Below are positions 1-37,067 of a stretch of 64,000 nucleotides of DNA, in pieces. The DNA is taken from the IMG/VR virus record IMGVR_UViG_2687453623_000004, one strand, 5' to 3'. Made by a program: the position numbers and the translations under genes. Position 1 is the first letter of the stretch, and the number at the start of each line of letters is the position of its first letter. Origin of the DNA: a virus. Its lineage: Duplodnaviria; Heunggongvirae; Uroviricota; Caudoviricetes. Below the pieces are notes generated by a model, which did not search any database, was not told the DNA's origin, and saw only the letters and a list, made by a program, of their open reading frames with translations.

Positions 1-10
1 TAATTTAGTA

Positions 11-16
11 TTCTTC
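11..16. repeat. Left copy of 6-bp target-site duplication TTCTTC of the Mu-like prophage
   Basis: TTCTTC immediately precedes the TG terminus at 17; identical hexamer follows the CA terminus at 37061. Confidence 0.6.
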
Positions 17-66
17 TGATTAGACTTGAGATAAATGACAGGGAATAAGTGAGATATTTATGGGAA
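17..66 (+). repeat. Left terminal inverted repeat with two GATAAATG / GATATTTATG-type putative transposase-binding motifs
   Basis: TGATTAGACTTGAGATAAATGACAGGGAATAAGTGAGATATTTATGGG aligns with the reverse complement of the right end (TGATGCGCCGCGCGATAAATGCACTCTATCTTGTGCGATAAATGG). Confidence 0.55.
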
Positions 67-179
67 GAACTGGGTCAAAATGGGAAGAGACTAGGAGGAA
101 TATGCAATAACCTTACAGTATGTGAAAATCAGACCGGCCCGAAAAAAAAACAGAACTCGCGCCAGCCTGATTGCAGATA

Positions 180-569
180 TTACTCTTTTTTCTCCGTATC
201 TGCATCGGGTTCATCAGCAAATAGCTTGCCCTGCATCCGATCCAGTTCTTCTTTTCTTACCCGCTTAACCACGCTGTAGACCCACTGAAGCGAAACACCA
301 AATTTGCGGGCCAGTTCGTGGTGGTTGCGTCCGTTAAACTCCCTGAAGATTTCCCGGTCGCGCTGACTGACCTTCCATACCATGCCCATCGGGAAATAAA
401 CGTTTTGCCCGCCCCAGACCTGCATCATTCGGTTCGCGACGGCCTGACCAATCTGGTCGGCAACTTCGGGCTCAATATCAATAATCTCGCGAACGGTCTC
501 AGAGGTATGCTGTGCCAGTTCCACCAGGAGTTCCGGCCCCTTACTTCGAAACTGATTCAGGTCGCTCAT
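180..569 (-). CDS. mor: Mor/C-family transcription activator
   Basis: 129 aa; motifs GGQNVYFP ... FNGRN ... FGVS ... VY resemble Mu Mor/C family; last gene of the leftward early operon. Confidence 0.65.
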   Translation of the reverse strand: MSDLNQFRSKGPELLVELAQHTSETVREIIDIEPEVADQIGQAVANRMMQVWGGQNVYFPMGMVWKVSQRDREIFREFNGRNHHELARKFGVSLQWVYSVVKRVRKEELDRMQGKLFADEPDADTEKKE

Positions 570-990
570 GTTTGACTCCCGCAGCTCTGCGCTGCCACTT
601 CTTCAGTTTCTCAATAACACTGCTTGCCTGTTCAGTACTGAGCCAGCGCAGGGCGCTGATGCCCGTTTCCCGCTTGATCCACCTCGCTAATGCATTTTCT
701 GAACGGTCACGAACAATGCCGGCAGCAGCCATTTCAAGCCATAGCGCACGAATTTTCCTGGACTGCGGATGGTTATCAAGCGGTAAACCGGAGCTGGCTT
801 TTCTGGCTGGTTTAACGCGAAAGCCTTTCTTTTTCATGGATTCCAGCACGCAGTTTAGTTGTGTGGTATCCATTCCTTTGGTTGAGGCTTTACCGGTCAG
901 CCCCTGTAACATCTGGCGGTAGGTGTCTTCATCCATACCCAGTTCATTACGGGCAATATGGATAAGCTGTATCAGGCGTTTTTTCTGCAT
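541..990 (-). CDS. GemA-like (Mu gp16 family) regulatory protein
   Basis: 149 aa, position immediately upstream of mor as in Mu; family assignment from memory. Confidence 0.5.
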   Translation of the reverse strand: MQKKRLIQLIHIARNELGMDEDTYRQMLQGLTGKASTKGMDTTQLNCVLESMKKKGFRVKPARKASSGLPLDNHPQSRKIRALWLEMAAAGIVRDRSENALARWIKRETGISALRWLSTEQASSVIEKLKKWQRRAAGVKHERPESVSK

Positions 991-991
991 A

Positions 992-1198
992 TCATCTCCT
1001 TTTTTTCAGTCTGTCGGCAACAATGTCGGTTGCAGCTGGCAGGGTGACTGGCCAGAACAACATGACGGCGGTCATGTACAGGATGTAATGCGCGGTGTCG
1101 TAGTGCCTGCCATAGCCCAGGGAACGATGAAGTCTTGCGCTGCATGATCCTGCGTACATATACCAGAAAAGAAAACAGACAATGGTTTCAGTAGTCAT
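992..1198 (-). CDS. Small hydrophobic protein, unknown function (start taken at internal Met of the 120-aa track ORF)
   Basis: MTTETIVCFLFWYMYAG... two predicted membrane helices; overlaps the stop of the upstream gene. Confidence 0.3.
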   Translation of the reverse strand: MTTETIVCFLFWYMYAGSCSARLHRSLGYGRHYDTAHYILYMTAVMLFWPVTLPAATDIVADRLKKRR

Positions 1199-1418
1199 TC
1201 TGAATACCTCCCCATTCGATATGAATATTACGGGCAGCAATGACAGGGTCGTTATTCCACCATGCACCTGACATGTATTTTTCAACCTGTTCGCGTCCGG
1301 CAATAACACCAATTGTGATCCCCGGCCTGACGTTCTTAAAAAAGGCGCGGGCAAAAAGGTATCTGGCAGATATTCGGCAGGCTTTTAATTTCCGGCTTTT
1401 ACCTGATAGCGTAATCAT
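1188..1418 (-). CDS. Hypothetical early protein
   Basis: 76-aa ORF co-oriented in the early operon. Confidence 0.3.
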   Translation of the reverse strand: MITLSGKSRKLKACRISARYLFARAFFKNVRPGITIGVIAGREQVEKYMSGAWWNNDPVIAARNIHIEWGGIQNDY

Positions 1419-35212: not shown

Positions 35213-35827
35213 TCAGCCGGCAAGCGCCAGTGGCGCTTCCGGCCAGCTGATTTCAGGTGCCTTGCTGATATCCAGTGCGTTCAGCTCGTCGATATAATCC
35301 AGCACGGCGTTCAGTTTTGCCGTTTCTTCTGGTTTCAGACTGCGACCAGCACGCAGTTTGAGGTTGATAAGATCGACGGACGCCATCGCCTGTTTCACCC
35401 GTTGCTGGCGTTGCTGTCTGGCAACCTCCAGTTCTGCGGCTCGCTGCCGTTCAGTATCGGTTACCCACGCCTCACCGTTCCAGGTATCCCATGGCGTGGC
35501 TGGCTGTTTTGTGGTGGTGTCCGCCGGGTAATCACCCGGTTGGGTAATCAGAACGGGGTTACCGTTCTCCGTGCTGTATACCGTCTCGCCGCGGTGATCA
35601 GGCACATGCTCCCACCCGTTCAGCGTGGCAGTCCGGCAAACCACGTAACCCGAAATTGCTTCCGGCGGTGCATCGGCGCACGAATGTGCCGGAGTACCCA
35701 CCCCAAGGGCGAGATACTCCACAGAGGATGAGGTGTATTCCCGGGTTTCCTCGTCATAGTGATATACAGTGATATCGCCCGCTACAGTGGCGATACCGTT
35801 TTCATCCAGAACTGCAGTGTTACTCAT
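35213..35827 (-). CDS. Tail fibre assembly protein (U'-like), inverted orientation
   Basis: 204 aa; C-terminus ...ISWPEAPLALAG typical of Tfa family. Confidence 0.6.
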   Translation of the reverse strand: MSNTAVLDENGIATVAGDITVYHYDEETREYTSSSVEYLALGVGTPAHSCADAPPEAISGYVVCRTATLNGWEHVPDHRGETVYSTENGNPVLITQPGDYPADTTTKQPATPWDTWNGEAWVTDTERQRAAELEVARQQRQQRVKQAMASVDLINLKLRAGRSLKPEETAKLNAVLDYIDELNALDISKAPEISWPEAPLALAG

Positions 35828-36309
35828 TAAACTGCCCTCACAATGTAATTAAGTGCAATGCTACGGGGTCTGACAGTGATACCCTTCGCATACCCGCTTC
35901 TGATAGAGGTCAGAATAGTAGCCTGCATACCATTGTCTGACATTGCCACGACAGGATCGCTGAATGTTGTCCCGTCCGGCATTTTAAAGCTGCCCTCACG
36001 AAGGTCTGTAATGGAATCTTCATTGTTGAATCCCATGCCGACTATCCCCGAGGTTCCCGTAGTGTCCTGGTTATAATAATCCAGCATTGCTGTTCTTAAC
36101 AGCGTTGCCCCTTGTGCGGACAGCAACTTACGTCCTGTATCAACTTTGCGCCCGTCGTCCCATCCACGGATAAACTCACCGCGTAAATCGGGAAGACGGA
36201 GGGTCGGGTAGACTCTGGCCAGAACAGGATATTGTTCTTTTGTAAAGGCGCGCCCGTCGCACTTTAACCAGCCTGCTGGCGGTGTGGCGGTGGGCCACGG
36301 AACAGGCAC
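35827..36309 (-). other. Inverted alternative tail-fibre C-terminal cassette (Sv3)
   Basis: Begins PVPWPTATPPAGWLKCDGRAF..., ends ...RPRSIALNYIVRAV; its 5' ~210 bp is almost identical to S at 34301-34512 in inverted orientation. Confidence 0.6.
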
Positions 36310-36320
36310 ACCAACGGGTA

Positions 36321-36346
36321 GCGCCGAGCCTTCTCCTAAACCAACG
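36321..36346 (-). promoter_or_regulatory. Putative crossover site C (inverted)
   Basis: Reverse complement GATAAACG-TT-GGTTTAGGAGAA. Confidence 0.4.
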
Positions 36347-36407
36347 TTTATCTCTCAAATCCTCCCCACATTATCTCAGTACTTTAACCACTCAAAAGGG
36401 AGTATTT

Positions 36408-36983
36408 TTAATGCTGATTGGCTACATACGTGTGTCAACAAATGACCAAAACACAGATTTGCAACGCAATGCATTAATGTGCGCAGGATGTGAACAGATT
36501 TTTGAGGACAAAATGAGCGGAACCAAGTCGGAACGACCAGGCCTGAAACGCGCTTTAAAGTGCCTTAAAAGAGGGGATACATTGGTGGTCTGGAAGCTGG
36601 ATCGGTTGGGTAGAAGAATGAAACACCTCATTGCTCTCACAGAAGAGCTACGCGCAAAAGGTGTCAATTTTCGCAGTCTGACGGATTCAATCGATACCAG
36701 CACTCCGATGGGAAGGTTCTTTTTTCATATGATGGGTGCACTGGCAGAAATGGAGCGTGAACTGATAGTTGAGCGCACGCTGGCTGGACTGGCTGCTGCG
36801 CGAGCACAAGGAAGAGTTGGAGGACGTCGCCCGAAACTGACGAAGGAGCAGCATGAGCAGATCGCAAGATTGCTCCAGAAAGGGTATGACAGAAAGCGGC
36901 TGGCAATTATCTATGATATTGGACTGTCAACGATCTACCGCTATCACCCTGTTGGGACTGTCATAACGCAACCTGAAATGTAA
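36408..36983 (+). CDS. gin: Serine DNA invertase (Gin/Hin/Pin family)
   Basis: MLIGYIRVSTNDQNTDLQ ... catalytic Ser motif and C-terminal HTH; start at internal Met of the track ORF. Confidence 0.85.
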   Translation, partial: LMLIGYIRVSTNDQNTDLQRNALMCAGCEQIFEDKMSGTKSERPGLKRALKCLKRGDTLVVWKLDRLGRRMKHLIALTEELRAKGVNFRSLTDSIDTSTPMGRFFFHMMGALAEMERELIVERTLAGLAAARAQGRVGGRRPKLTKEQHEQIARLLQKGYDRKRLAIIYDIGLSTIYRYHPVGTVITQPEM

Positions 36984-37011
36984 TTCTTTTTCAAATAATG
37001 AAACGCCGCGT

Positions 37012-37061
37012 GGATGCCATTTATCGCACAAGATAGAGTGCATTTATCGCGCGGCGCATCA
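37012..37061 (-). repeat. Right terminal inverted repeat with two CATTTATCGC motifs
   Basis: CCATTTATCGCACAAG and GCATTTATCGCGCGGCGCATCA; resembles Mu attR-type repeated A-protein binding sites (from memory). Confidence 0.55.
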
Positions 37062-37067
37062 TTCTTC
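37062..37067. repeat. Right copy of 6-bp target-site duplication TTCTTC
   Basis: Read directly after the prophage end ...GCGCATCA. Confidence 0.6.

Follow-up and report, generated by a model that had tools for sequence, protein, structure and literature searches.

Two questions are raised by the 64,000-nucleotide stretch of IMG/VR record IMGVR_UViG_2687453623_000004 (here called the window, at its full length): which kind of transposable phage occupies its left part, and whether the six base pairs duplicated at the borders of that phage set it apart from phage Mu, which duplicates five. An earlier note on this DNA had described a complete Mu-like transposable prophage inserted by transposition. 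Here, we report that the element at 17-37061 (37,045 bp, termini 5'-TG...CA-3') is very probably a temperate phage that moves by transposition, looks intact and belongs to the BcepMu/B3 group (genus Bcepmuvirus), carried as a lysogen in an Escherichia coli chromosome of sequence type 131 (ST131) type, as judged from its TG...CA ends and their repeats, its transposition proteins TnpA and TnpB, the 6-bp duplication and the empty site. The element is already known, an ordinary and catalogued prophage for which a 6-bp duplication is to be expected, and the only new detail is its exact position in the gene ycaL in the ST131 lineage.

On re-reading, both ends and both copies of TTCTTC (11-16 and 37062-37067) were found exactly where the earlier note had placed them. 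The element opens with TGATTAGACTTGAGATAAATGAC at 17 and closes with ...GCATTTATCGCGCGGCGCATCA at 37061, and when read inward the two ends form the imperfect inverted repeat that had been noticed, with ungapped identities of 15/22 and 24/44. Each end carries the motif GNGATAWWT twice, at element positions 12-20 and 35-43, which in window coordinates are 28-36 and 51-59 on the plus strand and 37042-37050 and 37019-37027 on the minus strand. The description of two motifs per end is thereby upheld, whereas the Mu-type spacing ascribed to them is not, the period being 23 bp as against the 22-bp offset of R1 and R2 at the right end of Mu. For the octamer GATAAATG, 1.85 occurrences would be expected in 64 kb, but the window has six, and three of the six are located no more than 45 bp from the element ends. 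Position and conservation suggest that the GNGATAWWT repeats would be the sites at which TnpA binds.

The length of the duplication was assessed in seven further independent insertions of close relatives, for which both flanks were read from complete E. coli genomes. Their targets were a FHIPEP gene (strain C9, hexamer GCCTCC), irp2 (AVS0744, CCTGAG), a lambda-type exonuclease gene (AH21B060, GGAACT), a position next to rayT (FDAARGOS_1077, CCGGGG), a lom-type gene (IAI39, GCACAT), glcF (EcPF16, AATAAT; this relative is 88.7% identical over the left 1.4 kb) and fadL (23070, GCTAAA). All eight insertions, that of the window included, have TG...CA termini and exactly 6 bp duplicated, and the hexamers are unrelated. 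Further distinct left flanks were seen beyond these at least eight sites with both flanks read. When window positions 1-1500 served as query, the matches to relatives inserted elsewhere began at 17 or, through chance identity, a few bases before it, so the prophage homology stops at 17 and does not continue to its left; on the right side, homology to independently inserted relatives ends exactly at 37061. In the stretch fetched for the FDAARGOS_1077 relative, flhA is located a few hundred bases from the right end and rayT just past the left end, and the CCGGGG duplication is still perfect.

To the right of the element the DNA is that of E. coli; 1.2 kb of this flank matched many complete genomes with 100% identity, some of which are free of the prophage. 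The empty site was found in E. coli SA186, where the left 16 bases of the window run straight into the right flank and the sequence reads cgccagcaa taatttagta TTCTTC atgtgaatcatccg (the last part also given as atgtgaatc). A single TTCTTC is present at the exact spot, as had been predicted for excision of the element. The uninterrupted site was found in 4,969 of 5,426 complete E. coli genomes. A relative of the prophage was found in 640 of the 5,426, and in 358, mostly ST131, it occupies the ycaL site with the exact junction between prophage and right flank.

The proteins of transposition point to the same group. In a tblastn search against phages, TnpA was 68% identical to the transposases of BcepMu and phiE255 and 56% identical to that of B3, over 98-100% of its length (98% for BcepMu), and Mu was not among the matches. 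The genes tnpA, tnpB, gam, gemA and mor are without exception encoded on the minus strand and read towards the left end, and the two-cluster genome organisation of BcepMu is present together with myovirus tail genes. The BcepMu transposase has been described as a distant member of the Tn552-IS1604 family, in a genome with its early genes on the bottom strand (PMC2771037). A duplication of 5 bp is known for Mu and one of 6 bp for B3, the latter being the footprint of the B3/Tn552-family transposase, and TG-CA ends are conserved (PMC8705779). The earlier observation that six base pairs differ from the five of Mu is thus correct as a fact but not as an oddity, since a 6-bp stagger is a property of B3/Tn552-family phage transposases and not a departure within the Mu family. 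A literature search for a statement on the 6-bp duplication of Tn552 returned nothing usable, a sequence search of the PDB with TnpA returned nothing useful, and the relationship of TnpA to Tn552 rests on the literature.

Two points weigh against the element being an intact phage of this group. Firstly, tblastn of TnpA against plasmids gave DDE and IS481-type matches of about 25% identity, with no Staphylococcus Tn552 among the matches listed, and the link to Tn552 was thus not reproduced. Secondly, presence at the same site in 358 genomes amounts to vertical inheritance, under which a copy with a silent defect would look no different. The second point is the basis for supposing that the ends are intact but the copy is domesticated or cryptic and no longer transposes or forms particles in ST131, which we consider unlikely. 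Besides the fixed position, the outcome of looking for a second, identical copy within a genome of ST131 type is in its favour. Such copies elsewhere in the genome had been proposed as a check, and the one two-copy strain examined, 23070, did not provide one: its second family member is a heteroimmune relative in fadL and not a transposed twin.

Other observations oppose domestication. The prophage of strain 4/1-1 is 99.98% identical to the window copy except for an inversion of 2,047 bp (34301-36347), bounded by inverted repeats of about 230 nt. As annotated by the Prokaryotic Genome Annotation Pipeline (PGAP), this copy carries partial flags only on tail-fibre fragments in the invertible region, and outside that region no gene is frameshifted or truncated. 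The segment is oppositely oriented in the two copies and the Gin system therefore flips, which shows that Gin at least is active. Moreover, several other sites hold copies whose left 1.5 kb is identical to that of the window copy to at least 99.8%. The GenBank record of Escherichia phage PhiKM (PQ738613.1, from uropathogenic E. coli), which is 100% identical and classified as Bcepmuvirus, bears on both sides of the matter: it is only a partial, gapped assembly, yet its left end, itself 100% identical, is joined to different, mostly plasmid-borne host DNA. Intact annotation, the flipped segment, the near-identical copies at other sites and the PhiKM junction argue for a recently mobile lineage. 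The earlier claim of an element intact end to end is borne out in that the element is complete, with sequence-defined ends and intact-looking genes. The ycaL copy in ST131 may be inducible and may produce virions.

The PhiKM deposit is permuted and lacks the gin end. At its positions 20234-20576, the exact left end is fused to 343 bp that do not come from the phage but from a permease gene, which in E. coli is found mostly on plasmids. This junction between host and phage was absent from all complete E. coli genomes searched, and its host part matched mostly plasmids. Insertion into a plasmid and a variable virion end fit the junction equally well, and it may be taken as a hint of variable host ends. 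In the window the repeat of about 230 nt is present in three copies (34298-34526, 34735-34965 and 36119-36347), two direct and one inverted, an arrangement that may allow more than a single product of inversion or deletion. In a preprint on ST131, a prophage assigned to Bcepmuvirus ('phiE255-like') is listed with a DNA invertase, and its tail-fibre genes are reported to show DNA 'translocation' when isolates are compared. The chromosome of strain 23070 contains two left ends of the family, and its fadL prophage is of the other immunity type.

Could the element instead be a true member of the Mu family, with a MuA-type transposase that has shifted from a 5-bp to a 6-bp stagger? Mor, GemA, Gam, the Mu-type head and the Gin invertase with its invertible tail-fibre segment at the right end would all suit such an origin, and at the right end 17 of the terminal 22 bp agree with those of Mu. 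However, TnpA matched rve alone (E 1e-8) in Pfam searches up to E 5, and none of the domains DDE_2, HTH_Tnp_Mu_1, HTH_Tnp_Mu_2 and Mu-transpos_C was found in it, while MuA as a control matched all four. BLASTP of TnpA against MuA gave an E of 0.48, which is no pairwise similarity, and as said above Mu was missing from the tblastn matches. In addition, no Phage-MuB_C domain was found in TnpB, and the early operon points to the left end, opposite to that of Mu. No MuA-type gene is present in the element; a Mu-family origin is refuted at the family level and we regard it as highly improbable. Both TnpA and MuA matched PHROG 310 (TnpA without the first approximately 130 profile positions) and both TnpB and MuB matched PHROG 296, and the members of each pair are therefore remote homologues with the same job. 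The designation Mu-like is thus acceptable in the broad sense of a complete transposable prophage. In the strict sense it fails: TnpA has neither a MuA Pfam domain nor BLASTP similarity to MuA and groups with the transposases of BcepMu and B3, and the element has the gene layout of BcepMu.

Duplications of 5 and 7 bp were considered as well. In the window alone, an A precedes TTCTTC on both sides (position 10 and the last base of the element, 37061), and a 7-bp repeat with an element ending in ...ATC is therefore formally possible. The same holds for IAI39, where the base before the left repeat is again an A. In six of the seven other insertions this base is C or G, and a 7-bp duplication is therefore excluded. 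A 5-bp duplication needs ends other than TG...CA and fits none of the eight insertions. That the true duplication is 5 or 7 bp, with the sixth base or a missing seventh arising by chance, thus has only the slightest likelihood. Site-specific recombination with TTCTTC as a short att core is scarcely credible, in that occupancy of the same site in 358 genomes, which might suggest it, fits clonal descent in ST131, while relatives with identical ends are found at no fewer than eight unrelated sites with eight unrelated flanking hexamers, no tyrosine integrase is present in the element, and its sole serine recombinase is a Gin-type invertase of 190 aa beside the segment that flips; insertion by transposition, as first proposed, is what the eight different targets show.

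The features of the element and its borders are collected in Table 1.

Table 1. Positions of the prophage, its borders and its main genes and modules in the window
Feature	Position	Strand	Remarks
Left copy of the 6-bp target-site duplication TTCTTC	11..16	.	Reverse complement of ycaL nucleotides 3-8
Right copy of the 6-bp target-site duplication TTCTTC	37062..37067	.	Orphaned ycaL start codon next to it, 37068-37070 (-)
Transposable prophage, very probably of BcepMu/B3 type	17..37061	+	TG...CA termini; 37,045 bp
Left end with two putative TnpA-binding repeats	17..62	+	GAGATAAAT at 28-36 and GAGATATTT at 51-59; in register with the left and right ends of BcepMu and B3
Right end with two putative TnpA-binding repeats, GCGATAAAT	37016..37061	-	Repeats at 37042-37050 and 37019-37027, read on the minus strand
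Mor-family late-transcription activator	180..569	-	PF08765, E 1e-43
GemA-like protein	541..990	-	PF06252, E 8e-41
Gam-like host-nuclease inhibitor	3192..3722	-	PF07352, E 1e-40
TnpB, AAA+ transposition ATPase, MuB analogue without MuB C-terminal domain	4022..5188	-	AAA_22; PHROG 296, common to MuB
TnpA, DDE transposase, rve catalytic core	5199..6968	-	Pfam, tblastn
Helix-turn-helix protein, first gene of the leftward early operon (Ner-like position)	8232..8546	-	
Candidate cI-type helix-turn-helix repressor, divergent from the early operon	8875..9231	+	Within mosaic immunity region
D12-class DNA adenine methyltransferase (Dam methylase)	9348..10202	-	Pfam
Mu-type head module: small terminase (DUF3486), large terminase, portal (DUF935), Mu F-like and G-like morphogenesis, major head	14117..21311	+	
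P2-type contractile tail and baseplate module: sheath, tube, tape measure, gpU/X/D/V/W/J/I homologues	22812..33484	+	
Tail-fibre gene, crossing the inversion crossover into the invertible segment	33481..34734	+	
Invertible tail-fibre segment (G-segment analogue)	34301..36347	.	2,047 bp
Gin/Hin-type serine invertase (gin)	36411..36983	+	190 aa

Variation within the family was seen in several parts of this gene map. The immunity and accessory region at about 6950-11150 is mosaic, and relatives that are 98-99% identical elsewhere carry another repressor and other neighbours there, giving at least two immunity types. Internal tandem-like repeats are found in the tape measure gene (27433-27985, with an offset of about 260 bp) and in the tail fibre gene (33715-34131, with an offset of 168 bp). 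These internal repeats account for length differences among relatives, with tape measure genes of 2,952 versus 3,213 nt and fibres of 417 to about 660 aa. Outside the prophage, the window at 54001-56000 has a G+C content of 0.41 as compared with 0.47-0.57 in the neighbouring host DNA.

The site of insertion calls for a correction. The earlier note had located it in the intergenic region downstream of aroA, a gene that spans 37239-38522 on the minus strand. In the empty genome aroA is followed by ycaL, which encodes a metallopeptidase and has its start codon 7 bases within the stretch matched by the right flank. On the minus strand the empty site reads ATGAAGAATACTAAATTA, translated as MKNTKL. 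The duplicated TTCTTC, taken as its reverse complement, corresponds to nucleotides 3-8 of ycaL (ATGAAGAA) and so belongs to the first codons of the coding sequence. In the lysogen, the ycaL ATG (37068-37070, minus strand) and promoter stay at the right junction and the body of the gene is found to the left of window position 1. By insertion at nucleotides 3-8, ycaL is therefore parted from its own ATG and promoter by 37 kb.

In lysogens PGAP calls ycaL with an ATT start at window positions 34-36, 20 nt into the phage end, giving MYLKSNQKNTKL..., a call that is doubtful. The body of ycaL is directly downstream of the leftward early/mor operon and in the same orientation, with an in-frame extension into the phage end. 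A weak promoter-like (sigma-70-like) match at 126-99 is oriented in the direction of ycaL, and a scan from mor to the left end found nothing resembling a terminator. It is conceivable, if rather improbable, that the insertion fixed in ST131 rewires ycaL and does not simply kill it, the gene being either silenced or read through from the phage. If so, YcaL, a protease of outer-membrane-protein quality control, would in a pandemic clone either go unexpressed in the lysogen or be expressed in step with induction of the prophage, and the envelope phenotype could be altered. The insertion was not described in any paper found by searching the literature for ycaL together with prophage. The disruption of ycaL in a pandemic clone is the sole point perhaps worth a small experiment.

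The main value of these results is in correct annotation and in base-exact ends for a very common E. coli prophage, together with the demonstration that the prophage interrupts ycaL in ST131. The eight insertions confirm a 6-bp duplication as the product of this transposase family in E. coli. They also advise caution in annotation: since the phage DDE transposases have more than one branch and the enzyme is not of the same branch as that of Mu, six base pairs instead of five should not be taken as a departure from Mu.

A mechanism for the formation of the duplication may be proposed by analogy with Mu, B3 and Tn552. TnpA would bind the paired end repeats and nick at the terminal CA-3', TnpB would choose or deliver the target, and both 3' ends would be joined to target phosphates staggered by 6 bp, with gap repair or replication leaving the duplicated TTCTTC. 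After induction, the same reaction would be expected to run replicatively and Mor to turn on the late genes, and the Mu-type head would be expected to package by headful with host DNA attached.

Among known systems, Mu shares with the element the TG...CA ends, a DDE transposase with an AAA+ partner (PHROGs 310 and 296), and Mor, GemA, Gam, the Mu-type head and Gin with an invertible fibre segment. The 17/22 identity to the Mu right end concerns window positions 37040-37061 on the minus strand and is found despite the lack of pairwise similarity between TnpA and MuA; the left ends are much less alike (9/22). Mu differs in its 5-bp duplication, as against 6 bp in all eight insertions of the element and its relatives, in the MuA-specific domains, including the N-terminal enhancer-binding part, that are absent from TnpA, and in the 22-bp offset of R1 and R2 at its right end as against a repeat period of 23 bp. 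The layout is also different, since Mu has its repressor at the left end and an early operon (ner, A, B) running rightward away from it, and the early genes of the element run the opposite way.

Tn552 carries paired 23-bp transposase sites at each end and makes duplications of 6-7 bp. The BcepMu and B3 transposases are reportedly presented as Tn552-related in the title of a 2018 article by Toussaint and Van Gijsegem. Tn552 itself, from Staphylococcus aureus, is a small resistance transposon and not a phage, and the transposases of BcepMu and B3 have been related to it (PMC2771037, PMC8705779).

The Pseudomonas phage B3 (Beetrevirus) is closer, with a transposase 56% identical over the full length, a 6-bp duplication and TG-CA ends (PMC8705779), related end repeats, and mor at the left end pointing outward. 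It differs in having a flexible tail (PMC6776037), where the element has a P2-type contractile tail, and in structural modules that are unrelated at the DNA level.

In BcepMu and phiE255 (Bcepmuvirus) TnpA finds its nearest counterparts, 68% identical over 98% of the length, although no nucleotide-level match of the element to BcepMu was found by megablast. BcepMu has the same early operon (mor, gemA, gam, tnpB, tnpA) transcribed in the direction of the left end, the same rightward course of the genes for lysis, head and tail, and the same TG...CA ends with two GNGATAWWT motifs at positions 12 and 35. The ends of both BcepMu and B3 are in register with those of the element, starting with TGA and continuing with GNGATAWWT at 12 and about 35. 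What distinguishes the element from BcepMu is its host, E. coli, and the right end, where BcepMu has an acyltransferase gene and the element has the Gin invertase and its invertible tail-fibre segment.

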